Counted from the first letter of the stretch, positions 1,260 through 32,407 are shown. The stretch is DNA of 64,000 nt from Candidatus Peregrinibacteria bacterium (GCA_016186205.1 JACPMA010000016.1:30978-94977); one strand, 5' to 3'. Notes: generated by a model from the letters alone, not told the origin. Numbers and translations: made by a program.

Positions 1260-2303
1260 ATGTCTCCTACTACCCCCCCCTCTGAACAATTTGGATATGA
1301 CGATGCGGCGCGAGCCCGAGATCTCGTTATAGATAAATTGCGCGATAGGGGATTAGATGCCGAGAAAGTACAAGACGGGGTTATTCTTGGTTCCGGGCTT
1401 GGCGGTTTCCCGGATGATCACATGCATGCGTCCCGGAGAGGCCATGCGGACGGTCCGCTGGTTATTCCATTCGGGGAAATTTTAGATGCTTTAGAAGCTC
1501 CGACAGCTAGCACCGGCGTACAAGGCCATGCCCATGAACTTGTGATTGGTCCTTTGAGCAATACGGACGAAAGTCGTCTCGTGGTTGCCCAGAGCGGCCG
1601 CGAACATCCATACGAACGCGTTCCCATGCAACGGTCGGTATTTTGGCTGCGCGTTATGCAGCTTTTGGGTGTTAAAACGCTTTTTGGCTCCAATGCAGCC
1701 GGAATTGTAACGCCGCGCACTTTAGGAATTCCTTCTCTCATGCTTGTGAACAGCGACCGCGAAGCTGGAACAGATAATCCGCTTGTCGGCCCAAATGATG
1801 ATCGGTTTGGAGAACGCTTCCAGCACATGAATGATAAATATCCGCAAGCGTCGCGGGATTTGGTAAAAGCGGTTGCTGCGCGGCTTGGCATTCCGCTTGC
1901 AGAAGGTTTGCTTTTCCGCGAAATGGGACCGAGTTATGAAAGTCCGGAAACTATCTTAGAACTTCGAGGGCGTCTCCGGACAATTTGGCGCGAAGCGCAA
2001 GATCAACGCGGCGAAGATCGCTTCAGATATTCCTCGACCGGAGATCCTACTGGAATGGTCGGCATGTCTTCAACATTTGAACATACTGTTGTGCAGCACG
2101 CGGCTTATTCTCGCGTTCATCCTGCTTTTTATAAAGGCAGAGCGCATGTGGGCGTCGCTACAAACTATGCCGCAGGGATGGGGCCTGACGGTTTTGTTCC
2201 TCCGCCGAATCACGAAGAGGTGAAGACAAATGCCAAACTTGTTCAAGATCAATTCGGCCGGCTCGCGCGCGAGGTGATTTTGGAGTGGCGCAAAGCGGCG
2301 TAA
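1260..2303 (+). CDS. Purine nucleoside phosphorylase family protein (PNP/MTAP class)
   Basis: Motifs GSGLGG, QGHAHELVIG, SGREHPYE (cf. GRxHxYEG), GSNAAGI and VGMSSTFE, in the order expected for PNP/MTAP enzymes. Confidence 0.7.
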   Translation: MSPTTPPSEQFGYDDAARARDLVIDKLRDRGLDAEKVQDGVILGSGLGGFPDDHMHASRRGHADGPLVIPFGEILDALEAPTASTGVQGHAHELVIGPLSNTDESRLVVAQSGREHPYERVPMQRSVFWLRVMQLLGVKTLFGSNAAGIVTPRTLGIPSLMLVNSDREAGTDNPLVGPNDDRFGERFQHMNDKYPQASRDLVKAVAARLGIPLAEGLLFREMGPSYESPETILELRGRLRTIWREAQDQRGEDRFRYSSTGDPTGMVGMSSTFEHTVVQHAAYSRVHPAFYKGRAHVGVATNYAAGMGPDGFVPPPNHEEVKTNAKLVQDQFGRLAREVILEWRKAA

Positions 2304-2339
2304 GATTTTTTCGTGTGTTCCGTATTAAAAAGCAGAACC

Positions 2340-3146
2340 ATGAAAATCTTCGCCAAAATTTGTGCGCTTGTAGTTTCGTATTTGAGCCTTGCTGTTTGGG
2401 GCGTGTTTTTGATTTTGCCGCCTGCAGGCGCGAGCGAAGCTAAGGGCGATATCCCGGTGCTTATTGTTCCGCATCATCTTGTGGCCGATCGTCAGATTCA
2501 GGGCGGTTTTGCGGCCATTGCATCTATGCGAAAAAATAATCCGCCCAAGCGCATTATTCTTTTGGGACCAAATCATTATTTTCGCGGCAAGGCGGATGTA
2601 ATTACTGCGCGACATAATTGGAATACAAACGATGGAGATATCATTGCGGACACGGCTTTCATTGATTTCATGGTGAAGAAAAATTTCGCATCGCTTGAAG
2701 ACGGGGTTGCGGAGGGCGATCATTCCATCACAGCTCTTTTGCCTTTTATAGAGCGATATTTTCCGGATGCTGCTTTGGTCCCGCTTATAATGCGCGAACC
2801 AATGCTGCGCAAAAACACTGAAAAGCTCGCGCAGTTTTTCAATGAACAGCTCGGGCCGGAAACTCTTCTCATAGTTTCCGCTGATTTTTCGCATTACTTT
2901 CCGAAAGAAATCGCCGAAGCGCATGACAAAGAATCGCTCGCAGCGCTCCAAACGCTCGACATGGATTTTATAGAAAAGCGGATGGACATAGATGCGCGGC
3001 AAATTCTTATGGTCGTTGCCGACTATCTAAAACTCAAAGGCGGCGCGAAATTTACGATGCTTTTTCATACGAACTCGGCTGATTTGACCGCGAACCCATA
3101 CGAAAAATCCACGACGAGCCATTTTGTCGGGTTCTATGAGCTATAA
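2340..3146 (+). CDS. MEMO1 / AmmeMemoRadiSam system protein B-like, membrane-anchored
   Basis: Start moved to ATG 2340 (MKIFAKICALVV... hydrophobic anchor). Motifs VPHH, GPNH and SADFSHY are typical of the Memo family. Confidence 0.6.
   Translation: MKIFAKICALVVSYLSLAVWGVFLILPPAGASEAKGDIPVLIVPHHLVADRQIQGGFAAIASMRKNNPPKRIILLGPNHYFRGKADVITARHNWNTNDGDIIADTAFIDFMVKKNFASLEDGVAEGDHSITALLPFIERYFPDAALVPLIMREPMLRKNTEKLAQFFNEQLGPETLLIVSADFSHYFPKEIAEAHDKESLAALQTLDMDFIEKRMDIDARQILMVVADYLKLKGGAKFTMLFHTNSADLTANPYEKSTTSHFVGFYEL
2427..2449. repeat. Short (internally deleted) copy of the GGCGCGAGCGAAGC...GGGCGA repeat family, in frame in the Memo-like gene
   Basis: GGCGCGAGCGAAGCTAAGGGCGA matches the two ends of the 49179-49231 copy. 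Encodes GASEAKGD just after the membrane anchor. Confidence 0.45.
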
Positions 3147-3158
3147 TGAGCATTGTGT

Positions 3159-3704
3159 ATGTCGGAATTAAATGAAGAGCTTCTTGTTGAGAAAGCGAAA
3201 ACCGATCAGGCCTCCTTCTCGCAGCTCTACGAAATGTACCTTCCAAAAATTTTCGCCTATGTTACGCGGCGCATTGGCAATAGGGATGAAGCGGAAGATC
3301 TCACATCAAACATTTTTGTGCGGGTGCTCGAAAATATGAAAAAATTCGATCCGAAAAAAAGCAGTTTCAAAACCTGGATTTATACGATCGCCACTCGCAT
3401 GATGATCGATTATTTCCGCACTCATAAGAAAAAACGCACAGAAAGCATTGAAATGGCGGAGACGATTTCCGATCCTCAAAAAAATCCCCATGAACAAGCG
3501 CAGGAAAATCAGCAGCGCCAAAAAGTGCTTTCGGTTATTGATCAGCTTTCCGACCGCCATCAACGCATTTTGATGCTCAAGTATTTCAGCGGCCTTGAAA
3601 CTCCCGAACTTGCGCTTGCGCTCGGCGTTACGGAAAATAATGCCTCGGTGATTGTTCATCGCGCTCTTAAAGATTTTCAAACAACTTATCAACGCTATGT
3701 TTAA
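3159..3704 (+). CDS. ECF-type RNA polymerase sigma-70 family factor
   Basis: ATG at 3159. Region 2 (EDLTSNIFVRV, FKTWIYTIA) and region 4 HTH (LKYFSGLETPELALALGVTENNASVIVHRAL). Confidence 0.8.
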   Translation: MSELNEELLVEKAKTDQASFSQLYEMYLPKIFAYVTRRIGNRDEAEDLTSNIFVRVLENMKKFDPKKSSFKTWIYTIATRMMIDYFRTHKKKRTESIEMAETISDPQKNPHEQAQENQQRQKVLSVIDQLSDRHQRILMLKYFSGLETPELALALGVTENNASVIVHRALKDFQTTYQRYV

Positions 3705-6700
3705 CTTCCTTTCAAAAATTTGGCGTAAGAATCGGCAGATTCCTTCGTATGAGGAGAGTGAAAAACTTCTTATTTCTTCACTCCTTCCTCCTATGAAACC
3801 TACGGATCAATTTAAAGCCGTCCTTAAAGAGCAGCTTTTGAATCGCTTTCCGGAAGCTAAGTCAGCGGTTAAATCGTTTTTCGGCCGCAAATTTATTTTC
3901 TCGGGCGCAGCCGCGCTCTTAATTCTTCTTGCTGTAGGATCGACGGTGTATTTTCTTCCAAAATCATTCGGGCCGCCGCAAGTGCCTATTGTGAGAGCGA
4001 GCAGCCAGTATGTTGCGGTGAATTTTCCGATCAGAGTTGCATTTCCGTATGATATTGCTGCCGAAACTGTTCAAAAATATTTTTCAATCAAGCCGAGCCA
4101 CAGCGAGGCTAAGCAAATAACGCGCCCGCAGGGCGCAACCGCTTGGCCAGAGATAGAAGGAACAGTGTCAGTGGAAAACGGCGTACTTACATTCAGCCAC
4201 CCGAAAAATCTCGAATATGAAACGGAATATACTTTGAAAGTTTCAAAAGAGGCTTCATCGAAAATGGAGCAAGATTTTACGATTTCTTTCACTACGCGCG
4301 CTCGCTTGGTATCGGAATTTTATCTTGCCTCGCGCATAGATATGGCGCATTCCACTGTGAATTTTTATGATCTCAAGCCGAAAGTGTTCATCAATATGCC
4401 GTATGACGGGAACTATACGGCGCGTATTTACAAAACTTCTGCAGATGGACTTTTGGATTATATTGCAGCGACGGAAAAAAATGCTTCACAAGGAAAAATG
4501 AATGACGATAATACGTTTAAAGCTTTGAAGAAGAATTTATTGGAAGAGCAAAAAGTAGTCGTGAAGCCGAATTTTGTGTATGAACCGGGGATTCAAGAAG
4601 CCGGCATGTATTTTGTTGAGATGACCGGCAAGCCCAAAACTGAGTATGACGAAGGCGTATATCGGTTTTTTATCACAGACAGTCGGTATGCTTTGAGCAC
4701 AAAACGCCTCGGAACGAAACTTGTGACATGGATGGTGGATATGCAAACCGGCGCAGGTATTCCGGATGCCAAAGTGACCGGCTACAGCCTTGATCGCACT
4801 GTTGTCTTTGAAGGAAAAACGAATGCAAACGGCATTCATGAGCAGGAAGTCGGACTGGATTTTGAAAAACAGCCAAGCGCGCTTGTGTTTGATACCGGTT
4901 CCGAGCGCGTTGTGAATATGGTGCGCGTAAAATATCGAAGCATCTTCGACGTTGATTGGAGTAATCGGCAGCAGCCGTATCAGGGATATGTTATGTTTGA
5001 TCGACCCCTCTACAAGCCCGGCGATACTGTGCAGTTCAAAACGCTTCTGCGCAAAACAGGCGAAACTAATTATGACGGTTCCATCAAAACCGCACATATC
5101 GAAGTTAGACGGAGCAATTATGGGGAAGCTTCAGACACGCTTTTCAAAAATGATTATAGCGTGAGCAGAACCGGAACTTTTGCCGGCGATTTTCCGCTCA
5201 ATAAAGAATTAAAAACAGGCGAATATAGTCTCACGGTAAAAGTCGGCGACAAGGAAATCATTTCGGAATGGTTTGGCGTGGAGGTTTTTCAAAAGCCGGA
5301 TTTTGAAGTCGCGGTTAAACCGGATCAAGAAGCATATGTTTCCGGCGATACTGTAAAAGTGGATGTTTCGGCGAATTATTTCTTCGGCGCAGCTGTGAAA
5401 AATCAAAAGGTGACCGTTAGCATTGAGGATACTTATTATTATAGAGGTTCGGTTGCTACCAAAGATGGCGTGCTGGACAGCAGCGGGCATTTTAAAGCGG
5501 TTTTTGAAGACTTCCGTTCCTCAAAGGAAAATGATTCTTATTGGGGGTATGGCGCGGAGGGCCAGCCTTTTACGATTCGTGCAACTGTCAACGAAGATAC
5601 CGGAAAAACATTTTCCAAGAGTTCATCGATTTATCTTTATCCATCGCAGTACACGCTTAAAATTGAAGAACCGCAGGCGCTCTGGAATTTGAAGCCGCGC
5701 GAAAAAATTCCATTTACTTTCCGGGTTGCACGCGCGCTCGACAAGAGCGAAATGAACGGTGTGGCAGGCGCAAAAATAAAGCTTGATCTTGTGGACCGGT
5801 CATGGGATCGAACGCTCATGAGCCTGAACGAAAAACACCTTCTTCCAACGGATACGACGATTACAACCGATTCATTCGGCAAGGCAAAATTTGAATTTGA
5901 ATTTCCGGTCGGCGGTTCATATCAGCTTATTGCTTCTTCTCCGGATCCGAAGGGCAATACAGCGGAATTCAAGGAATATTTCTGGATTCCCGATGCGGAA
6001 AATAACATATTTTATGACGCGTCATTGCCGCAAGCCACAGCGCAAATCGCGTTGGTGCCTGACAAAGAGTCATACAAAGCCGGCGAAACCGCGAAAGTAA
6101 AAGTTTATACGCCGCAGGAAGAAGGCGACATGTTTGTGAGCGTTAATACGAAGAGCATGCGCCGGATGTTCGTGCAAAAACTTTCCGGAAGCGATCATGA
6201 ACTCGAAATTTCCGTTACGGAAGATCTTGCGCCCGGTTTTTTCATCTTTGCGGAGGTGTATAACAGCGATACATTTTTTACAGGCACGCGCTTTATTGAA
6301 GTCACTGGCAAAAAGTTGTCTGTGGAAATTATGCCGTCGCAGAAACAATTGTATCCCAAAGATGAAGTTACTCTTTCTGTAATAACCAAAGATGAAAACG
6401 GAAATCCTGTGTCTTCCGAAGGCGCACTGACCGTTGTTGATAAAGCGCTTCTTGCGCTGCGCGCTGCCAATGACAAAACGCTCTTCGATAGTTTTTATGT
6501 GCGGCCGAGCGAATATAACATGAGCCGGTTTACCACGACGGATCCGTTTTCCGTTGGCGCAGCGGAAAAAGGCGGTTGTTTCTTGCCAGGCACGCTCATT
6601 TTGATGGCTGACGGATCGCAGAAACCGATTGAAGAAATCCGCGTTGGCGATGTGATTCTTACGAAAGCAGATGATTTTTCTTCACAGCTTGTAAAAGATA

Positions 6701-9003
6701 CTGTCGTGCGGACATTTGAACATACGGTCGGCGAGTATCTTGTGATTAACGGCTCGTTGAAGGTCACGCCGATCCATCGAATGTTTGCGAATGGCGGCTG
6801 GAAGACAGCCGGCGAAGTTCGTCTGGGCGATTGGTTTTTGGATTACCGCGGCCGGCAAGTTTTCGTCACCTCTCTTGAAAAAACATACAACCGCGTGAAG
6901 GTTTACAACTTCGAAACAGAACGTCTCCACACTTATTTTGCCGACGGCATCTACGTTCACAACGACAAAGGCGGAGACAGCCGGCCGCGCACCGAATTCC
7001 TTGATACGGCTTACTGGAATGCTTTTGTGGAAACGGGCTCGGATGGAAAAGGATCGGTTACATTTAAAGTGCCGGATAATCTCACCACATGGGTGGCGCT
7101 TGGGAAAAATATCACAACTGATACGAAAGTCGGCGAAGGCGAAAACGAATTTATTGTGACAAAAGATCTTTTCATCCGGCCGAATCTTCCTTTATTTGTC
7201 CGCAGCGGCGATGAAATGGAAATCGAAGCGCCGGTGCATAATACGACTAATCGCGACCTCGCCGTGAAGGCTTTGATAAAGGCGACAGGCGCAACTGTTT
7301 TGAATGAAACCCTTCAAGAAATTTCCGTTTCTGCGAATTCCTCAAAATCCGTTCGCTGGAAGGTGCGCGTGGATGAAGTTAAGGAACTTAAATTTGAATT
7401 TTCCGTGAATGAAGTTGGCGGAAAACTCGTTGATAATCTCGTGCAAAAAGTGGCGGTCTATCCTTCTACTTCTCTAGATAACACCGTGCTCACGGGCGCA
7501 GCGCCAAAGAAATTGGATTTTGTTTTTGATGCTGATTCGCCGTACAGCAACGCGACCCTTACTCTTGCTGCTTCCGCGGTCGGCATTCTTCCGGAAATTA
7601 TTGAAAAACTCACAGGTTTTCCATACGGCTGCGTTGAACAAACCATGAGCAAGCATCTTCCGAATGTACTGGTAAAGAAGTACAGCGAATTGCTCGGCGT
7701 TTCATTGCCGTCCGATCTTGATAAAAGTTTAGAAGAAGGATTTGAGCGTTTGCGGAAATACCAGCACAATGACGGTTCATTTGGCTGGTGGGAAAACGAT
7801 AATGCGAGCATTTGGATGACAGGTTATGTTTTGGAAGGATTTTTGGAGATTAAAGACATGGGGCTTTTGGCCGGCCGCGAATCAATGTATCAAAGAACGC
7901 TTGAATATTTGAAAAACGCGCTTCCAAATTTGAAAGCCGATGAACGCATTTATGCGAATTACGTTTTGGCCCGCGCGCTACCTAAAGATTTTCTGCTCGA
8001 AATTGACGAAGAAGAACTTCGAAGTTTACAGCCTGAATTTCTTGGATACGTTGCACTCGCGCATCATTACAACGGCAATAAAGAAGAAGCCCAGCGCATA
8101 GTAAAAGATTATATTTTGAAAAAACTTGAAGATAGCCATTGGGAACAGCCTGATAATTTGTATGATGGTCACGATCTCTCCATGGGCGATAAATATCTTG
8201 CAACCGGCGTGAATCTTTCCGCGCTCCTTACAATCGGCGGCGCGCAGGAATCAGAGATCCGCGAAATCGTGCAATGGCTTATGACTCATCGAAACGGCTA
8301 CGAAGGCTTGTGGGGATCCACGCGCCAAAGCAGCCAGGTGCTTTTCGCGCTCTTAAAATTCATTCAGAAATACAATGAGTTTGATCCAAATTTTGACTAC
8401 GCGATAACGCTTGGCAACGAAAAATTATTCGACGGAAAAGCAAACGGCAAAAACTTTTCCAAGAAAATCGAAATTCCGTCTAAAAAACTTTCCGCAAAAA
8501 ATGCGCTCGAAATTTCTTCCAGCGGGAAAGGAACGCTTTATTACACGCTTTCCGTGAAGAATTATACAGGCGCCGCATCAGCATCGGATGAAATCAAGGT
8601 AAGCCGCAGCTATATGAAGGACGGAAAAGCCGTGAAAGAATTTTCCGTGGGCGATGTGCTCGAAGTGCGCCTTGATGTCGAAAGTCCGAAAGACCTCACG
8701 TATGTGATGGTGGAAGATATGCTTCCGGCAGGATTTGATGTCATCAATGACCGCCTCCAACGCGATAATCAATATGGCTATGATTATTACGAAGGTGGAT
8801 ATTATTGGAGCGATGAAGTTGATATCCGCGACGAACACGTGGCGCTTTTCAGCTCCTATGTTTCCGCAGGCCGCCGCGCTTTCAGCTACCGAGTCCGCGT
8901 TTCCCGCAAAGGAACTTACAGCGCGCCTGCTCCAAAAGTCACGCCAATGTATGATCCGCAGCTTATGGGCGTTGGTACAAAGGAAACGCTTGCTATCCGT
9001 TAA
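3697..9003 (+). CDS. Membrane-anchored alpha-2-macroglobulin family protein with a thioester motif and an inserted Hint domain
   Basis: ATG 3697 overlaps the sigma stop codon (ATGTTTAA). N-terminal segment of about 75 aa, then one TM helix (FIFSGAAALLILLAVGSTVYFL). Repeated MG-like beta domains, thioester PYGCVEQT (CVEQ at 7630-7641), and the post-bait signature TEFLDTAYWNAFVETGSDGKGSVTFKVPDNLTTW. Confidence 0.8.
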   Translation: MFNFLSKIWRKNRQIPSYEESEKLLISSLLPPMKPTDQFKAVLKEQLLNRFPEAKSAVKSFFGRKFIFSGAAALLILLAVGSTVYFLPKSFGPPQVPIVRASSQYVAVNFPIRVAFPYDIAAETVQKYFSIKPSHSEAKQITRPQGATAWPEIEGTVSVENGVLTFSHPKNLEYETEYTLKVSKEASSKMEQDFTISFTTRARLVSEFYLASRIDMAHSTVNFYDLKPKVFINMPYDGNYTARIYKTSADGLLDYIAATEKNASQGKMNDDNTFKALKKNLLEEQKVVVKPNFVYEPGIQEAGMYFVEMTGKPKTEYDEGVYRFFITDSRYALSTKRLGTKLVTWMVDMQTGAGIPDAKVTGYSLDRTVVFEGKTNANGIHEQEVGLDFEKQPSALVFDTGSERVVNMVRVKYRSIFDVDWSNRQQPYQGYVMFDRPLYKPGDTVQFKTLLRKTGETNYDGSIKTAHIEVRRSNYGEASDTLFKNDYSVSRTGTFAGDFPLNKELKTGEYSLTVKVGDKEIISEWFGVEVFQKPDFEVAVKPDQEAYVSGDTVKVDVSANYFFGAAVKNQKVTVSIEDTYYYRGSVATKDGVLDSSGHFKAVFEDFRSSKENDSYWGYGAEGQPFTIRATVNEDTGKTFSKSSSIYLYPSQYTLKIEEPQALWNLKPREKIPFTFRVARALDKSEMNGVAGAKIKLDLVDRSWDRTLMSLNEKHLLPTDTTITTDSFGKAKFEFEFPVGGSYQLIASSPDPKGNTAEFKEYFWIPDAENNIFYDASLPQATAQIALVPDKESYKAGETAKVKVYTPQEEGDMFVSVNTKSMRRMFVQKLSGSDHELEISVTEDLAPGFFIFAEVYNSDTFFTGTRFIEVTGKKLSVEIMPSQKQLYPKDEVTLSVITKDENGNPVSSEGALTVVDKALLALRAANDKTLFDSFYVRPSEYNMSRFTTTDPFSVGAAEKGGCFLPGTLILMADGSQKPIEEIRVGDVILTKADDFSSQLVKDTVVRTFEHTVGEYLVINGSLKVTPIHRMFANGGWKTAGEVRLGDWFLDYRGRQVFVTSLEKTYNRVKVYNFETERLHTYFADGIYVHNDKGGDSRPRTEFLDTAYWNAFVETGSDGKGSVTFKVPDNLTTWVALGKNITTDTKVGEGENEFIVTKDLFIRPNLPLFVRSGDEMEIEAPVHNTTNRDLAVKALIKATGATVLNETLQEISVSANSSKSVRWKVRVDEVKELKFEFSVNEVGGKLVDNLVQKVAVYPSTSLDNTVLTGAAPKKLDFVFDADSPYSNATLTLAASAVGILPEIIEKLTGFPYGCVEQTMSKHLPNVLVKKYSELLGVSLPSDLDKSLEEGFERLRKYQHNDGSFGWWENDNASIWMTGYVLEGFLEIKDMGLLAGRESMYQRTLEYLKNALPNLKADERIYANYVLARALPKDFLLEIDEEELRSLQPEFLGYVALAHHYNGNKEEAQRIVKDYILKKLEDSHWEQPDNLYDGHDLSMGDKYLATGVNLSALLTIGGAQESEIREIVQWLMTHRNGYEGLWGSTRQSSQVLFALLKFIQKYNEFDPNFDYAITLGNEKLFDGKANGKNFSKKIEIPSKKLSAKNALEISSSGKGTLYYTLSVKNYTGAASASDEIKVSRSYMKDGKAVKEFSVGDVLEVRLDVESPKDLTYVMVEDMLPAGFDVINDRLQRDNQYGYDYYEGGYYWSDEVDIRDEHVALFSSYVSAGRRAFSYRVRVSRKGTYSAPAPKVTPMYDPQLMGVGTKETLAIR
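4091..4140. repeat. Copy of the repeat family inside the A2M gene (in frame)
   Basis: TAAGCAAATAACGCGCCCGCAGGGCGCAACC differs at one position from the intergenic copy at 58398-58428. Encodes SHSEAKQITRPQGAT. Confidence 0.7.
6577..6963 (+). other. Hint / bacterial intein-like (BIL) mini-domain, 129 aa, embedded in the A2M bait region
   Basis: Block A CFLPGTLILMADG (Cys1 codon 6577-6579), block B LKVTPIH (TxxH), blocks F/G VYNFETERLHTYFADGIYVHN (terminal Asn codon 6961-6963). The next residue is Asp, not Cys/Ser/Thr. Confidence 0.8.
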
Positions 9004-9044
9004 TAATTAGCATAAATATGAGCATGTATTTTTAATTTTTATTT

Positions 9045-10490
9045 ATGGCTATAACGCATTTACTTGATTTATCTTATCAGGAATTGGAGGAACGGAATTT
9101 GGCTATTAAACAAGAGCGCCAGAAAGGAGTAACAAGCAACGAGATGAAGAAAAAGTTTTTGTCGTATTTGAAAGAAGAAAAAGGGATCAAAGCAATTACG
9201 GTATTTTTTACCGATTTGGAAGGCCGGCTGCACGCGCTCGACTATGACAAAAATTTTCTTATTGAGGCCGAGGAAAATCTTACTTTTGACGGTTCTTCCA
9301 TCCGCGGTTTTACGGCGCAGAAAGAATCCGATCTGCGGCTCAAAATAGACTGGACCTCTTTCCGGTATGCGCCGGCCGATCTTTTCGGTTCCGGAAAAGT
9401 GCTTGTGTTTGCAAATGTATGCGATAAAGATGGCAGTCCTTATGAAGGCGATTTTCGTTCACGCCTTACTCGGCTGTGCGAAGAACTGCATGCATCAAAA
9501 GGCCTCACCGTGAATGTTGCGCCGGAAATCGAAGGATTTTTATTTAAAGGCCAAAAGGCCGAACAGTCATTTGATGAGAAAGTTGGATTTGAACTCGCCA
9601 CAATGAGCGGTTATTTCAGTTCGCTTCCGCAAGATATTCTAAGATTGTTTATCGATAAATTCGCCGAAGTGCAGCGCTGCCTCGGTTTTCAGAACGAGAA
9701 GGATCATCCGGAAGTGGCTCCGGCGCAGTTTGAATTGAATTTTAGATATTCCGGCGCACTTGATACAGCCGATCAAATCCAGCTTTATAAACTCCTCGCT
9801 CGGCAGGTGGCGGGTTCCATGGGGCTCACAGCTTGTTTTTTGCCGAAGCCGGTGCAAGGTTTAAACGGCAGCGGAATGCATACGAACATTTCTCTTTCAA
9901 AAAACGGCAAGAATATTTTTTATGATGCGCAAGGAAAGTATAATATGTCGGGAGCTGCGTATCAATTTGCAACCGGCGTTCTTTTTTATGCTAACGATAT
10001 TTGTCTTGTCATGAATTCAAGCGTAAATGCCTATCGAAGACTTGATCCGGCTTTCGAAGCGCCGAATGAAATTAAAATGTCTGCCACAGACAGGGGATCC
10101 ATGGTGAGAATTCCGATCGGCAATGAAAGGAGCGCTCGTCTTGAGGTGCGCACCGTTGCTCCGGACGCCAATCCATATCTTTGCATTTATGCTTTGATTT
10201 TAGCCGGCTTGAAAGGAGTCGAGGGCGAGGAGAGCGAGCTAAAGAAAATGGAAGCTGCGTTCAGCGGTAATGTGAAAAAATTGTCTGGAGATGTCTATAC
10301 AGCCATCGAACGTTTTGAAAACAGCGGTTTTATGAAAGAAATAATGGGATCGGAAAATCATCTGAAATACGCTGAACTCAAACAGGCCGCTGCGGACCGC
10401 AGTCCGAGGAATCTTGGTAAACGCCTCAAGTCCGGCGAAATTTTGTATCACCACGAAATCACCAATCAGCTGTTGTGGTCGGATTTTTAA
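9045..10490 (+). CDS. glnA: Glutamine synthetase family protein
   Basis: 481 aa. Beta-grasp N-domain (FTDLEGRLH, FDGSSIRGF) and catalytic domain motifs (NGSGMHTNISL, RIPIGNERSARLEVR). Confidence 0.8.
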   Translation: MAITHLLDLSYQELEERNLAIKQERQKGVTSNEMKKKFLSYLKEEKGIKAITVFFTDLEGRLHALDYDKNFLIEAEENLTFDGSSIRGFTAQKESDLRLKIDWTSFRYAPADLFGSGKVLVFANVCDKDGSPYEGDFRSRLTRLCEELHASKGLTVNVAPEIEGFLFKGQKAEQSFDEKVGFELATMSGYFSSLPQDILRLFIDKFAEVQRCLGFQNEKDHPEVAPAQFELNFRYSGALDTADQIQLYKLLARQVAGSMGLTACFLPKPVQGLNGSGMHTNISLSKNGKNIFYDAQGKYNMSGAAYQFATGVLFYANDICLVMNSSVNAYRRLDPAFEAPNEIKMSATDRGSMVRIPIGNERSARLEVRTVAPDANPYLCIYALILAGLKGVEGEESELKKMEAAFSGNVKKLSGDVYTAIERFENSGFMKEIMGSENHLKYAELKQAAADRSPRNLGKRLKSGEILYHHEITNQLLWSDF

Positions 10491-12426
10491 TAAGTTCTTT
10501 TAGCGCATTTTCGATTTCTTCATCGATTTTAGTGTCTTCTTCAAAAGACAGCGCTGATGCCTGTTTTACATCTGCAGGCTGAACGTACTTCCAAGTAAAT
10601 AGCGGTCGAATCGTAATATATCCATCCGCTGCAAAAATGCCGTTCGGAATATGGTATAGGTCAGGAGCGTATTTTTTGTATTCGCGATCGCCAGTATAAA
10701 ATTCCTTGCCGTCAAAAACATTCTTTTTGAGCCAGTTGTATTTTTTCTTGAGTGGCGGTTTGTCTTTCATATAATCGCGAAACACTTCTCCATGGAGAAC
10801 ATACATCGTGACGCTCACGGCAAAATCTTCTCCTCCAGTGGCGTAGCCGGGATTAGCGAGGGATTCCCATCCTTGGGCGTAGCTGAAAAAATTTTGTTTC
10901 ATTTCATCCCATGCCGGATCTTGGGTGTGGTCTTGGCCATCTTCAGGAAAAGTCGGTTTATGAGGTCTCCAACGGTAGACATCATTTATTCTGTCAGAAA
11001 CATCGTAGCTGATGTTATAGAATCCCGTTGTATCTACCATATATGTGTCTATAAAATGGCTGTATTCATGCATGATAGTTCTTATTTCATCATAGTCGCT
11101 CCGCCCGATCATATTGTTGGTTTTGAATTTTAAAAGTTTGCATTGTGATGCATATTGAGGAAAGTAGCCGCTTGAGCAAATAAGTTTCTTTTTTTCTGAA
11201 ATGCTGCTGAACGTTTGTTTATTGATACAGTCTTTTTTTTGTATGCGAAGGCGCTGCGGAAAGACATCAATAGCGGTTTTTTCAAGATAGGCGAGGTGCT
11301 CTTTAGAAACATCTTCATATGGCGTCGGCGCCATAAATTCATAACACGTAAATTTTTTCGCCGCTTCACGATCGCGTTGTTCCATAGCTTTTAATTCATC
11401 AGCAAGTACTTTCAGCATTTTTGCATCGACAATATTGGAATATGGGAGGCCGTGTTCTTTTTGGAACCGCAATACTCCTTTCATAAATCGGGTCGGTCCG
11501 CAAATATGGTCCATGTTGTATCCAAGCTGCCGCAAACCGTTTAAAATTTTTGCGACATACGGGTCTGCAACCGGCTGCGCGACCGGAAGGATGCGAAGAT
11601 CGATATTTCCAACGCCGTGGCCGTAACATCCATTCGGATCATAATCGAAGAGATCAATGGTTTCTTCGCCTCTCAATACTGCTTCCGCTATAGGATCGTT
11701 TTCAAAATAACTCTTAAAATTCTTTGACATTTTTGAGTAAGGATATTTGCCAGCAAGAATTGTTGGCGGAGTAAATGGCGTGGTTCCTGCAGGAAATGGC
11801 GGCGACGGAGGTGGAATTTCTGTTGTCGGTGGTGCAACTTCTGTTTGCGGCGCTTCCCACTTCTGAACTTCATCATATGTGCGGCTTTCAAATATCAGTC
11901 CTGCGCTGATATTCGAAAATCGATAAAGCATTTGAGCGGATTCGCCGCGAGTAAGTTTTTGTTCAAAGCCCGTAATGCTTATTGGGATTGCTTTTTTGCC
12001 AATAAGGATTGAAGCATATTGTTGCGGTCCATTAGTAGAAAACCCGATGGCTTTCACCATAATCTGCGCTGCTTCAAGAAAAGTAATTGGTTGGTTTGGC
12101 TGAAAAGTGCCGTCCGGACGAGCATTGATAATTTCCATATTTTTCGCTTCGCAGACGAATTTCGCAAACCATTGGTTTTTCACATCCGGAAAGCAGTTTG
12201 CTCCAGCAGGTTTTTCATAGTAAAAAACCGGAAAGAGCATGGCGAGGAATTCAGCGCGGCTGATTATTTTATCCGGCTGGAATTTTTTACCCGGTAATTT
12301 TACGCCATTTTTTTGCACGAATTTTATGGCTTCATCGTTTCCGCGTTCCGCAAATTGAGCGCCGGCAAAATGCGCTGCAGCCCCGATGACTAAAAATACC
12401 GCTGCAAATATAAAAAATCTTTTCAT
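10459..12426 (-). CDS. Secreted protein with an SLH-like module, a peptidoglycan-binding-like module and an HExxH motif (putative zinc metallopeptidase)
   Basis: Signal peptide MKRFFIFAAVFLVIGAAAHFAGA. SLH-like ISRAEFLAMLF...DGTFQPNQPITFLEAAQIMVKA. PG_binding-like VLRFQKEHGLPYSNIVDAKMLKVL. HExxH in IMHEYSHFID. Confidence 0.55.
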   Translation of the reverse strand: MKRFFIFAAVFLVIGAAAHFAGAQFAERGNDEAIKFVQKNGVKLPGKKFQPDKIISRAEFLAMLFPVFYYEKPAGANCFPDVKNQWFAKFVCEAKNMEIINARPDGTFQPNQPITFLEAAQIMVKAIGFSTNGPQQYASILIGKKAIPISITGFEQKLTRGESAQMLYRFSNISAGLIFESRTYDEVQKWEAPQTEVAPPTTEIPPPSPPFPAGTTPFTPPTILAGKYPYSKMSKNFKSYFENDPIAEAVLRGEETIDLFDYDPNGCYGHGVGNIDLRILPVAQPVADPYVAKILNGLRQLGYNMDHICGPTRFMKGVLRFQKEHGLPYSNIVDAKMLKVLADELKAMEQRDREAAKKFTCYEFMAPTPYEDVSKEHLAYLEKTAIDVFPQRLRIQKKDCINKQTFSSISEKKKLICSSGYFPQYASQCKLLKFKTNNMIGRSDYDEIRTIMHEYSHFIDTYMVDTTGFYNISYDVSDRINDVYRWRPHKPTFPEDGQDHTQDPAWDEMKQNFFSYAQGWESLANPGYATGGEDFAVSVTMYVLHGEVFRDYMKDKPPLKKKYNWLKKNVFDGKEFYTGDREYKKYAPDLYHIPNGIFAADGYITIRPLFTWKYVQPADVKQASALSFEEDTKIDEEIENALKELIKNPTTTADW

Positions 12427-30608: not shown

Positions 30609-32147
30609 ATGAATGAAATTATTGAAAAAATATTGGAAAAATTAGCACTCGGATTAGCCCGAGTTTCAACCGAAGAGCAGGAAGATGGGCATACGATTCC
30701 CGCTCAAGTTCAGCGAATAAATGATTATGCAGCACAGAAAGGCCTAACCCTTGAAAAAGTTTTTGAGCTAACGGAATCGTCCACAAAAGCAGACAGGAAA
30801 AAATTCTGCGAGCTCTTTGAAATCATTAAACGCAGTAAAATTCCTGTAATTTTAATTGTTGAAACGGTGGACAGGCTGCAGCGTAGTTTTAGAGAATCCG
30901 TTGAGCTCGATGCTTTAAGAAAAGATGGAAAACTCGAAATCCACTTTTTACGAGAAAATCTTGTTATCAACAAGGATTCCAACAGCGTAGATATTATGCG
31001 CTGGGATCTCGCTGTTTTTGTCGCAAAGACTTACGTATTGCAGTTAAGCGACAATGTAAAACGCAGCTTGGAACAAAAGCTCCGCAACGGTGAATGGATT
31101 GGAAGAGCCCGCGTCGGATATTTGAACATTGATCTTCCGAACGAAAAGAAATCAGTAGTTCTTGATCCAGACAGGGCTCCACTCATAAAAAAAGCATTTG
31201 AATGGTATTCAACAGGGAATTATTCGACGAGCCAAATAACAACAATGCTTAAAGAGGCTGGACTCACCAATAATACGCCTAAGAAAGCCATCCTCAATAA
31301 AAGCACCGTAGCGGAAATGCTACAGGAACCTTTTTACTACGGTGAAATGAGGGTGAAGGGTAAACACTATCCTCATAATTATGAGCCTATTGTGGCACGT
31401 TGGTTATTCGACAAATGTCAGCAAGTACGTGAGGGCTGGCATAAAAAGCCTTTTAAGACTGGAGAAACTTTTTATGCCTTTAGAGGCCTAATTAAACACG
31501 ACTGCGGATGTTTACTCACTCCGTACACGAAAAAGGGAATTGTATATTTGAAGTGCTCGAAGTATCGCGGTAACTGCCAAGGGGTTAGTGTGAATGAAAA
31601 AGATTTGATTAAAGAACTTGCCGAGATTTTTCGTGTTATGCGTCCTCCAGATGATGTGGTGGAGGACGTTAAACAGCAATTACGCAGCAGCCATGAAAAT
31701 GAACAACGATTTTATGAGTCGAACATTCAACGTATCAACAAAGGACTTGCTACGATCAAACAGCGTTTCCAGCCCGCCTATGAGGACATGCTGGATGGCC
31801 GTATTACGAGGGACGAACACGACAAATTGGTGCAGAAATGGAAGCAGCAGGAAAGAGACCTCTTACTTCAACTTGAGGATCATTCAAAAGGGGATGAGCA
31901 GTTTTACATCACGGCTTCTTACCTGTTAGATATTTCAAAACGAGCACAGGAACTTTTCCTGCGTTCGCAACCGGAGCAAAAACGACAATTTTTGAATTTC
32001 GTACTTGCGAACTTAAGTTTGGAGGGCAAAAAGCTCGGCTACAAGCTGAAAGAACCATTTGCGGCTATGCACGAAATGGGTATTCGTATGAATTGGCTCC
32101 GGAGGTCGGACTCGAACCGACAACCCACTGGTTACACGAATCCTTAA
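30609..32147 (+). CDS. Large serine recombinase (integrase)
   Basis: 512 aa. Resolvase catalytic domain with LARVSTEEQ (catalytic Ser), recombinase domain, Cys-rich zinc-ribbon-like segment (CGCLLTPY...LKCSKYRGNC) and a coiled-coil tail. The last 54 nt overlap the tRNA-Asn 3' exon on the opposite strand. Confidence 0.85.
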   Translation: MNEIIEKILEKLALGLARVSTEEQEDGHTIPAQVQRINDYAAQKGLTLEKVFELTESSTKADRKKFCELFEIIKRSKIPVILIVETVDRLQRSFRESVELDALRKDGKLEIHFLRENLVINKDSNSVDIMRWDLAVFVAKTYVLQLSDNVKRSLEQKLRNGEWIGRARVGYLNIDLPNEKKSVVLDPDRAPLIKKAFEWYSTGNYSTSQITTMLKEAGLTNNTPKKAILNKSTVAEMLQEPFYYGEMRVKGKHYPHNYEPIVARWLFDKCQQVREGWHKKPFKTGETFYAFRGLIKHDCGCLLTPYTKKGIVYLKCSKYRGNCQGVSVNEKDLIKELAEIFRVMRPPDDVVEDVKQQLRSSHENEQRFYESNIQRINKGLATIKQRFQPAYEDMLDGRITRDEHDKLVQKWKQQERDLLLQLEDHSKGDEQFYITASYLLDISKRAQELFLRSQPEQKRQFLNFVLANLSLEGKKLGYKLKEPFAAMHEMGIRMNWLRRSDSNRQPTGYTNP

Positions 32148-32407
32148 ATTTCTTTAAGGGGTGGACTATATCTTTATCCGCAAAAGTGTGCACGTGCACA
32201 CTTTTGTGAGGACATCTTGGTATCTAGTCTCTACGGCGCCCCCTCACATTTTGCGATCCCGCAAAAGGCGAAGGGTTCCCACGGTATTACCCGGTCTGTA
32301 CGTACAGACTTTGGGCTTCACCGTTATCCCAAGAAGTTTCAACCTAAGTTGCCTTAGGAAGCTGCGTAATTTCACAGCCAGTTGCTCTACCATTGAGCTA
32401 CTCCGGA
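32094..32407 (-). tRNA. tRNA-Asn(GUU), split by a group I intron (exons 32374-32407 and 32094-32134)
   Basis: The joined exons give a 75-nt cloverleaf: UCCGGAG UA GCUC AAUGGUA GAGC A ACUGG CUGUUAA CCAGU GGGUU GUCGG UUCGAGU CCGAC CUCCGGA G CCA. U1-A72 and G73 match E. coli tRNA-Asn. Confidence 0.85.
32135..32373 (-). ncRNA. Group I intron (239 nt, no ORF)
   Basis: P1: exon GGCUGU pairs with intron GCAGCU, with a U.G wobble at the 5' splice site. P2 is CCUAAG-GCAA-CUUAGG. P3 is CUUGG/CCAAG. P4 is ACGGU/ACCGU. P6 is UUUUGCG-GGAU-CGCAAAA. Core GUAGAGACUAGA with P7 GACUA/UAGUC. P8 is a 13-bp hairpin. P9 is CCUUAAA-GAAA-UUUAAGG. The terminal nucleotide is G. Confidence 0.8.

Follow-up and report, generated by a model that had tools for sequence, protein, structure and literature searches.

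A bacterial intein-like Hint domain in the bait loop of a patescibacterial alpha-2-macroglobulin clade

Members of the alpha-2-macroglobulin (A2M) family, among them A2M itself, complement C3/C4/C5, the insect thioester-containing proteins (TEPs) and the Escherichia coli protein ECAM, share, in the prevailing view, one means of arming, in which a protease from outside cuts the bait region or its equivalent. Could such a protein carry the means of processing its own bait? The question is raised by a gene on a 64,000-nucleotide stretch of DNA from Candidatus Peregrinibacteria bacterium (GCA_016186205.1, JACPMA010000016.1:30978-94977; hereafter the window), which encodes an A2M homologue whose bait loop is interrupted by a Hint domain of 129 amino acids (aa). 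We analyzed the identity of this domain, its position in the host protein, its conservation and inheritance among homologues, and the reactions that it might perform. Coordinates are collected in Table 1.

The Hint domain and its place in the host protein

The host is a bona fide bacterial A2M. Along the protein, Pfam models matched in the order MG2, MG3, A2M_BRD (residues 785-921), PT-HINT (967-1090), A2M (1104-1191), TED_complement (1296-1388) and bMG10 (1637-1755); macroglobulin (MG) domains, a bait-region domain, a thioester domain (TED) with a CxEQ motif and a C-terminal MG domain are those of the alpha-2-macroglobulin/thioester-containing family. Searched at full length against PDB sequences, the protein matched E. 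coli YfhM/ECAM, Salmonella SaA2M, mosquito TEP1, human A2M and complement C4. The mechanically called open reading frame (ORF) begins at TTG 3652 (3652..9003, + strand) and contains the Hint segment in frame. The probable start is ATG 3697, from which the product is identical to the NCBI hypothetical protein HYW83_05420 (Candidatus Peregrinibacteria bacterium). A basic N-terminal extension of 65 aa (3697-3891) precedes the predicted transmembrane (TM) helix, and by the positive-inside rule these basic residues would place the extension in the cytoplasm and the A2M body, with the Hint, outside the membrane. The whole protein has two cysteines, Cys961 of the Hint and Cys1312 of the thioester motif.

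The identity of the insert was established in several independent ways. A preliminary description of this DNA, made from the sequence alone, had placed a Hint domain of the bacterial intein-like (BIL) kind here; the translation (CFLPGTLILMADG ... VTPIH ... GIYVHN) agrees with it exactly. On the isolated insert, the Pfam model PT-HINT (PF07591) scored 55.1 bits (E 1.3e-14, cutoff 27.7), and 48.8 bits on the whole protein. The cutoffs of the Pfam models Hom_end_hint, Vint and Hint_2 and of the NCBIfam model intein_Cterm were exceeded as well. The catalytic residues are Cys961 (Cys1), Thr1024-x-x-His1027 (block B), VYN...HTYFA (block F) and His1088-Asn1089. Among PDB sequences, the top Hint match was 2lwy, annotated as a bacterial intein-like domain, which aligned over the full length (E 1.3e-12) and has the VYNF...HTY...VHN motifs in common with the insert.

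Structure prediction gave the same answer. We modelled residues 776-1201 with AlphaFold2 from an alignment of 17 family sequences (mean predicted local distance difference test score, pLDDT, 80.5). The Hint (model residues 186-314) is compact, with pLDDT mostly 85-95, and the linkers on either side (model residues 169-183 and 317-330) have pLDDT <50. Foldseek returned 2lwy as the top Hint match for the domain, with a target-normalised template-modelling score (TM-score) of 0.83, a root-mean-square deviation of 1.9 Å and 33% identity; the BIL2 domain of Tetrahymena BUBL1 (6y75/6tmm) followed with a target TM-score of 0.76-0.80. The MG parts of the model matched structures of A2M, complement, CD109 and ECAM. 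Because sequence models of two collections, PDB sequences and structures all agree, the observation of a Hint is real and far beyond chance.

The fold, the N-terminal nucleophile and the TxxH of block B place the insert in the Hint superfamily. Within it, the insert agrees with an A-type BIL in every sequence and structure feature that we tested: the nearest relative by both sequence and structure is an A-type BIL, the domain has only 129 aa with no homing endonuclease or remnant of one, it ends in His-Asn, the residue that follows (+1) is not a nucleophile, and its location is a disordered loop, the bait, of a protein that is exported. Unlike BILs in general, it is fixed within one clade of proteins. 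No further Hint copies were found in the window.

Other classes of Hint domain, and one proposed mode of control, were considered and set aside. A canonical (class 1) intein is excluded by Asp1090 at +1 in place of Cys, Ser or Thr (Ser occurs in 5 of 130 homologue representatives, Cys or Thr in none), and also by a distribution and site unlike those of inteins, namely presence in all close homologues, co-divergence with the host, a variable disordered loop and the absence of an endonuclease. The insert does pass the PF07591 threshold for the Pretoxin-HINT of polymorphic toxins, but MG7-CUB-TED-MG10 of an A2M, not a toxin module, lies downstream. The G|CF junction is that of a Hedgehog-type Hint (Hog), yet the extra region after the Hint is absent and the terminal His-Asn is invariant. 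A redox switch through a disulfide with Cys1 was rejected, since the Hint has no other cysteine, the protein has two in all and 118 of 119 family Hints have a single one.

The Hint lies between the A2M_BRD and A2M (MG7) domains, with EKGG ahead of it and DKGGDSRPRTEFLDTAYWN...VPDNLTTW behind. In a MAFFT alignment of the E. coli yfhM product (ECAM) with Hint-bearing and Hint-less homologues, the site is anchored upstream by VDKALLAL...FDSFY in the window protein against VDSGVLNI...WQAFF in ECAM, and downstream, at the first MG7 strand, by GKGSVTFKVPD against GEGSVTLPIGD. The insert thereby falls at ECAM residues ~940-953, varying with gap placement, and not outside the bait, which had been named as an outcome that would count against it. 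Fyfe et al. described Arg923-Leu942 of ECAM as the disordered bait and found that, once the bait is cleaved, its residues Arg956, Gly958 and Asn963 engage the C-terminal MG domain as the protein is activated (PMC4498604). The Hint therefore occupies the C-terminal end of the bait, directly ahead of the tether segment. The claim that it interrupts the bait loop upstream of CVEQ is thus borne out by the Pfam order, the low-pLDDT linkers and the ECAM alignment; GCVEQ occupies residues 1311-1315, and Cys1312 lies 223 aa past the terminal Asn1089.

Conservation and inheritance across the A2M clade

To define the family, 1.84 billion cluster representatives were scanned with HMMER using the Hint and its 60-aa flanks as the query, which gave 401 proteins at E <=1e-30. 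Of the 150 listed among these, 130 were A2M-like, with a single ~129-aa Hint and both flanks, and each represents one 50%-identity cluster; at least 130 A2M cluster representatives hence carry one Hint at the bait site. A contig scan added four full-length A2M genes in which a Hint occupies this same position (L001-L004; Table 1). The taxonomy of the clade rests on the NCBI names of P0164 and P0170 and on the titles of L001-L004.

Both junctions are strongly conserved. All 130 representatives have Gly at -1, usually as GG, Cys1, the penultimate His and the last Asn, so that the conservation of Cys1 and Asn, proposed earlier as a check, is complete. Lys at +2 is found in 128, and in the two exceptions, as in P0173, an apparent four-residue insertion shifts it. 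The +1 residue varies (D66, Q29, E20, G7, S5, N2, L1), and in 125 of the 130 it is, like Asp1090, not a nucleophile, in keeping with what had been noticed in the window protein. Inside the domain, the block B Thr and His and the VYN...A residues of block F are >=98% conserved. The host thioester is far less constant: CxEQ lies ~220 aa downstream of the Hint in 71 representatives and is absent from 59 (about 45%), which keep the Hint.

The three relatives L002-L004, which are without CxEQ, also have a shrunken TED, and every catalytic residue of their Hints is kept.

Of all parts of the protein the Hint is the best conserved, and it changes more slowly than its host. Across 119 representatives, pairs of Hints are on average 44.5% identical, and the two 250-aa host flanks 25% and 28%. 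In a graded series of relatives, identities to the window copy for Hint and host were 94/87, 84/69, 78/58, 65-70/52-53, 65/46, 54/36 and ~40/26%. Among BLASTP matches covering >=76% of the query, PF07591 was present in every full-length homologue down to ~23% identity, and Hint-less A2Ms aligned over only ~38% of the query. The Hint is accordingly a fixed, vertically inherited domain that diverges together with its host, neither a one-off insertion nor a mobile intein.

Three observations might have pointed elsewhere. A recent insertion or mobile element finds no footing in base composition, as the guanine-plus-cytosine (GC) content of the Hint is 0.483 against 0.458 +/- 0.024 in same-size windows of the A2M gene and both this value and that of third codon positions (GC3) lie within ~1 standard deviation; an endonuclease is absent, and Hint divergence tracks that of the host. 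Horizontal exchange of Hints was suggested by a weak correlation among the deep 50%-identity representatives (Spearman rho 0.15-0.18 between Hint and host, 0.86 between the two host flanks), but the graded series of closer homologues speaks against it, and we attribute the weak correlation to saturation of a short, constrained domain. The similarity of the EKGG and DKGG flanks (AAAGGCGG), to which the preliminary description had drawn attention, does not extend to the family, whose upstream flanks read GGG, KGG, MGG or RGG; it is no target-site duplication, and the family features are instead Gly-1 and Lys+2.

Only one loss of the Hint was seen among the proteins examined (the 130 Hint-bearing representatives and the Hint-less BLASTP matches). 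The 1522-aa protein P0186, whose thioester motif is CMEQ, aligns along its entire length with the host part of the Hint-bearing P0076 at 46% identity, which nests it within the Hint-bearing clade. It occurs on three contigs, including NCBI GCA_002754885.1 and the Logan assembly of SRR6011892. The absence is precise (AEMGG|GGDDGPRNVLKD in P0186 against AESGG|Hint|GKDGGARTIFKD in P0076), which shows that the A2M scaffold tolerates a bait equal to the predicted ligation product. Since the +2 position of P0186 is Gly, Lys+2 belongs to the Hint module and not to the bait or host.

The nearest Hints outside A2Ms form tandem arrays of 2 to ~11 copies (P0016, P0048, P0079, P0162, P0022, P0054 and P0059), joined solely by HN|K-G(1-4)|C linkers. 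Excision of every copy would leave little beyond (KGGG)n. The linkers agree with Lys being part of the Hint module.

Proposed reactions at the junctions and competing explanations

What does a Hint domain do in a bait loop? With a probability of roughly 0.65, we propose that an A-type BIL Hint, catalytically intact to judge by its residues, has become fixed in the bait loop of an A2M clade of the candidate phyla radiation (CPR)/Patescibacteria and excises itself independently of any protease. From the conservation at the two junctions we infer the following order of events. The A2M would be exported and fold outside the membrane, where Cys961 would attack the carbonyl of Gly960 (N-S acyl shift) to give a Gly-thioester. 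Cyclisation of Asn1089 would cut the C-junction, and the Hint would leave the disordered bait loop without a protease. The Gly960 acyl group would then pass to an amine, most likely one in the C-flank, either the alpha-amine newly freed at residue 1090, as has been proposed for A-type BILs, or that of the side chain of the near-invariant Lys1091 (epsilon-amine), as shown for Tetrahymena BIL2. With either acceptor the halves would be re-joined, leaving a short Gly-rich bait; should ligation fail, the bait would stay cut, the event that normally fires an A2M trap.

The residues needed for these steps are those that do not vary: Cys1 and TxxH for the N-S shift, His-Asn for Asn cyclisation and Gly-1 as a minimal acyl donor, with Lys+2 as a near-invariant amine. 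Invariance at both junctions argues for the use of both reactions, and it disfavours models with a single cleavage; we consider it probable that both junctions react. As to the main outcome, amine-mediated re-ligation is our tentative choice, rated at somewhat under even odds, and cleavage without ligation seems the less likely of the two. A Gly-Gly end is typical of ubiquitin-like acyl donors, which the Gly-1 of the family, usually within GG, brings to mind. Dassa et al. in 2004 reportedly suggested an attack on the thioester by the alpha-amine that Asn cyclisation sets free. In Tetrahymena BIL2 the C-terminus of the N-extein is joined to a Lys epsilon-amine as an isopeptide (PMC8616854), and the autoprocessing site of Hedgehog is Gly-Cys (PMC5874633), resembling the invariant Gly-1/Cys1. 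A-type BILs without a +1 nucleophile readily cleave at their C-terminal end, and some splice by an alternative route (PMC5874633). The earlier expectation that canonical splicing should not occur stands as far as the missing +1 nucleophile goes, but was too strong in view of such alternative splicing and of the BIL2 isopeptide (PMC8616854).

Several considerations weigh against self-excision with re-ligation. The published accounts conflict on whether A-type BILs ligate at all, a second review stating that they cleave yet cannot ligate (PMC7765530, against PMC5874633). The activity of the Hint is a prediction from conservation. If splicing were clean, some further advantage (timing or protection, for instance) would have to explain why a Hint is retained in a loop that should tolerate deletion, and if excision were constitutive with no ligation, the trap would be permanently fired, a state hard to square with protease inhibition. 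Moreover, the Lys stands at +1 in the tandem-Hint relatives but at +2 in the A2M Hints, and it may be a nucleophile, a catalytic helper or a structural residue.

The closest alternative, possible although on balance doubtful, is a trap that fires itself. Cleavage by the Hint at one junction or at both would not be followed by re-ligation, Asp1090 as the new N-terminus would be untethered in the way known from ECAM after attack by a protease, and the molecule would adopt the activated conformation with the CVEQ thioester exposed; by analogy with the removal of the C3 anaphylatoxin, here without a convertase, the product would be a timed or conditionally triggered covalent attachment device and not a protease trap. 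A globular insert whose removal activates a thioester has a precedent in C3/C4/C5, and complement structures are among the Foldseek matches. The position fits, as the Hint stands directly ahead of the segment that matches the ECAM tether, which binds the C-terminal MG domain once cleaved. The missing +1 nucleophile in 125 of 130 representatives and the tendency of A-type BILs toward C-terminal cleavage (PMC5874633) also speak for it, and it would supply the function that retention in a deletion-tolerant loop demands and that clean splicing lacks. However, C-cleavage alone needs neither Cys1 nor Gly-1 and N-cleavage alone does not need His-Asn, and all of these are kept in 130 of 130; the 59 members without CxEQ have no thioester to expose and still keep the Hint. 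An unconditional trigger would also waste the metastable state, and the single Cys and the absence of an extra domain leave no trigger evident. The broader suggestion of the preliminary description, that trap activation could be autocatalytic or redox-dependent, may apply; the Hint offers no second Cys for a disulfide switch.

A second alternative, which we regard as improbable, treats the Hint as another covalent warhead in the manner of BUBL and Hedgehog proteins. In trans, a lysine or other nucleophile of a target would resolve the Gly960-Cys961 thioester; this would link the membrane-anchored N-terminal part of the A2M to a protease or host-surface molecule and so supplement or replace the CVEQ thioester. 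BIL2 (target TM-score 0.76-0.80) needs no ATP to attach its N-extein to lysines of different substrates (PMC8616854), and a paper on A2ML1 states that inhibition by monomeric A2Ms depends on covalent binding (PMC9156758). The Gly-Gly-like acyl donor is invariant, the Hint persists in the 59 members from which CxEQ and much of the TED have gone, and flexible linkers in the model hold it exposed at the very place where proteases dock. Transfer in trans, however, requires neither the invariant terminal His-Asn nor a Lys+2 in cis, a domain for adduct recognition like the sterol-recognition region of Hedgehog is absent, and the proposal is purely analogical, with nothing in the sequence pointing to a target.

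More unlikely again is a selfish mini-intein that splices cleanly, brings no benefit and persists because it is hard to delete. Both junctions are intact, as clean excision requires; P0186 is precisely without a Hint and still a normal-looking thioester A2M with the same gene neighbour; and Hint-less bait loops such as GGGEDE and GGGGEDQ look like the sequence that ligation is predicted to leave. Yet such a loop should tolerate imprecise deletion, and with a single loss seen and the Hint the best-conserved part of the protein, this explanation is hard to maintain. A homing endonuclease or remnant is absent from a domain of only 129 aa, the Hint occurs in every close homologue instead of sporadically, it evolves more slowly than its host and in step with it, the +1 residue is not Cys, Ser or Thr, and inteins usually favour the very opposite of a disordered, variable loop in a secreted, non-essential protein. 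Finally, although Hint folds that have lost activity are known in other proteins, an inactive structural or binding module (e.g., a folded decoy or bait) is very unlikely, because residues for the N-S shift and Asn cyclisation would not be expected to stay in 130 of 130 representatives of a non-catalytic scaffold while surface positions vary.

Genomic setting, novelty and comparison with known systems

The A2M gene follows genes for a Memo-like protein and a sigma-70 factor of the extracytoplasmic function (ECF) type. The sigma and A2M genes overlap by 8 nt, at the stop codon of the one and the start codon of the other (ATGTTTAA), and the same sigma-A2M pair is found in L001, L002 and L003. 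Exactly these four sigma-paired A2Ms have an N-terminal extension of 65-75 aa ahead of the TM helix with the common motif ...P[ST]xxFKxxL[KR]xQLLN.... Among A2Ms without a sigma gene, P0177, P0081, P0175 and P0174 have the TM helix within the first 30 aa, P0173 has an unrelated N-terminal region of 65 aa ahead of it and P0182 has no obvious N-terminal TM helix; L004 has an N-terminal region of >100 aa ahead of a hydrophobic stretch, with no sigma gene among the upstream ORFs tested. These sequence features suggest that the A2M may double as an anti-sigma factor or sensor of the ECF sigma pair, and no Pfam anti-sigma domain was matched in the A2M N-terminus. A Memo-like gene adjoins the A2M in 6 of the 9 clade loci that were examined, namely the window, L001, P0177, P0173 (where it is fused to PGA_cap), P0182 and the Hint-less P0186.

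A wider hypothesis, bolder and rather unlikely as a whole, would join these elements. The Hint would make activation or capture by the A2M independent of proteases, with a lysine epsilon-amine attacking the Gly960-Cys961 thioester; this could be Lys1091 in cis, giving a branched, isopeptide-spliced bait, or a lysine of a protease or host surface, giving an ATP-free second warhead that replaces CxEQ in the ~45% of members without it. The subfamily of the window might further wire this chemistry to expression through the co-translated ECF sigma factor and an anti-sigma-like N-terminus.

Downstream of the A2M gene, a glutamine synthetase gene is followed, at ~1.5 kb from the A2M gene, by a gene whose 655-aa product contains an S-layer homology (SLH) domain, as would fit an S-layer on the cell envelope.

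Elsewhere in the window, Rfam detected a group I intron (55.5 bits) within an apparent tRNA gene. The interrupted tRNA, with the 5' half TCCGGAGTAGCTCAATGGTAGAGCAACTGG... and the 3' half ...CCAGTGGGTTGTCGGTTCGAGTCCGACCTCCGGAGCCA, was not called by ARAGORN. It lies against the 3' end of a gene for a large serine recombinase, an arrangement that may mark an integrated element.

Table 1. Position of the Hint-bearing A2M gene, its parts and other features in the window and in related loci
Locus	Feature	Coordinates	Strand	Basis or remark
Window	Memo-like gene (PF01875)	2313..3146	+	Pfam
Window	ECF-type sigma-70 factor gene (Sigma70_r2, r4)	3153..3704	+	Pfam
Window	A2M host gene	3697..9003	+	1768-aa membrane-anchored A2M homologue; ATG 3697 start
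Window	Predicted single TM helix, residues ~66-86 (FIFSGAAALLILLAVGSTVYF)	3892..3954	+	read from sequence
Window	A2M bait-region domain (A2M_BRD, residues 785-921)	6049..6459	+	Pfam
Window	N-side bait linker, residues 922-960, ends AAEKGG; Gly960 = -1	6460..6576	+	predicted disordered
Window	Hint domain, A-type BIL kind, residues 961-1089	6577..6963	+	translation, Pfam, NCBIfam, PDB, AlphaFold2/Foldseek
Window	C-side flank, residues 1090-1103 (DKGGDSRPRTEFLD); Asp1090 = +1, Lys1091 = +2	6964..7005	+	predicted disordered; corresponds to ECAM bait tether
Window	A2M / MG7 domain (PF00207, residues 1104-1191), with VPDNLTTW signature	7006..7269	+	Pfam
Window	CVEQ thioester motif, Cys1312-Gln1315	7630..7641	+	sequence; within TED Pfam match 1296-1388
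Window	Bacterial MG10, C-terminal MG domain, residues 1637-1755	8605..8961	+	Pfam
Window	Glutamine synthetase gene	9045-10490		between A2M and SLH genes
Window	SLH-domain protein gene	10459-12426	-	655 aa
Window	Large serine recombinase gene	30609-32147	+	
Window	Apparent tRNA gene	~32094-32407	-	
Window	Group I intron	32142-32384	-	Rfam
L001	A2M gene with Hint			Patescibacteria metagenome-assembled genome (MAG); A2M 56% identical to window protein
L001	Memo-like gene	3515-4336		
L001	Sigma gene	4476-5027		
L002	A2M gene with Hint	6983-12376		Peribacteria MAG
L002	Sigma gene	6438-7004		
L003	A2M gene with Hint	4107-9476		labelled Gracilibacteria
L003	Sigma gene	3514-4128		
L004	A2M gene with Hint	2894-8611		8.7-kb MAG contig binned as Pseudomonadales, may be misbinned
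L054	Memo-like gene	4140-5981		
L055	Memo-like gene	7583-8428		
L057	Hint-less A2M gene (P0186)	1997-6565		
L057	Memo-like gene	6572-7477		

The modules described here are known, their combination is unreported, and conservation at the level of the family is strong. A full-text literature search, in which BILs were covered through reviews, found no description of a Hint, BIL or intein in an A2M, in agreement with the earlier impression that the architecture had not been described; CPR A2Ms are mentioned just as putative protection against host proteases (PMC9793634). A self-processing domain in the bait would imply protease-independent maturation of the trap, protease-independent firing or a second thioester capture chemistry. 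In intein research, it would stand as a clear example of a BIL domesticated for a host function, in a protein that is defined and open to assay, and its invariant Gly-1 and near-invariant Lys+2 echo the isopeptide-forming BIL2. For the epibiotic CPR/Patescibacteria, the Hint, the Memo-like neighbour and the coupling to a sigma factor suggest a surface system more elaborate than protection against proteases.

Among known systems, the complement proteins offer a parallel at the level of the host. In C3/C4/C5 the anaphylatoxin occupies the position equivalent to the bait, its removal triggers a conformational change and exposes the thioester, and processing into two chains occurs there. The anaphylatoxin is unrelated to Hint, however, and is removed by furin or convertases, not autocatalytically. 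E. coli YfhM/ECAM and Salmonella SaA2M resemble the window protein in their MG, bait-region and CUB/TED domains with CxEQ, in the C-terminal MG10 and in being of the membrane-anchored, monomeric type. In contrast to them, the window A2M is anchored by an N-terminal TM helix and not through a lipobox, carries a folded domain of autoprocessing type in the bait and belongs to a clade in which the thioester is absent from nearly half of the members; its gene neighbour is Memo-like, together with an ECF sigma gene, where E. coli yfhM has pbpC.

Among Hint domains, PF07591, the model of pretoxin-HINT, is the best-scoring Pfam model for the insert, whereas no toxin domain lies downstream of it. The Phe of the Hedgehog Gly-Cys-Phe autoprocessing site has its counterpart directly after Cys1. 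The A2M Hint thus shares the G|CF tripeptide at the N-junction with the Hedgehog Hint (Gly-Cys according to PMC5874633), but it is without a sterol-recognition region and has a terminal His-Asn.

The BIL2 domain of Tetrahymena thermophila BUBL1 (6Y75/6TMM) has the same Hint fold. Its ubiquitin-like acyl donor ends in Gly, as does the donor of the A2M Hint. A Lys isopeptide product (PMC8616854) would fit the combination of Gly-1 and Lys+2. BIL2 differs in being eukaryotic, flanked by ubiquitin-like domains and regulated by zinc, with only ~24% identity.

The closest known system is the A-type BIL, represented by the Clostridium thermocellum domain 2LWY, the best match in sequence (E 1.3e-12, ~33% identity) and in structure, and so the closest solved relative. 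Like it, the A2M Hint is a domain of ~130-140 aa free of an endonuclease, with Cys1, TxxH, VYNF..HTY, a terminal His-Asn and no +1 nucleophile, sited in a variable region of a secreted or surface protein of bacteria; a C-terminal His-Asn followed by a residue that is usually not Cys, Ser or Thr is a recognized feature of A-type BILs (PMC7765530, PMC5874633). The A2M Hint departs from them in its host and site, an A2M and its functional bait loop, in being fixed and vertically inherited in a large clade where BILs are scattered among hypervariable proteins, and in adding Gly-1 and Lys+2 to the residues that are conserved.

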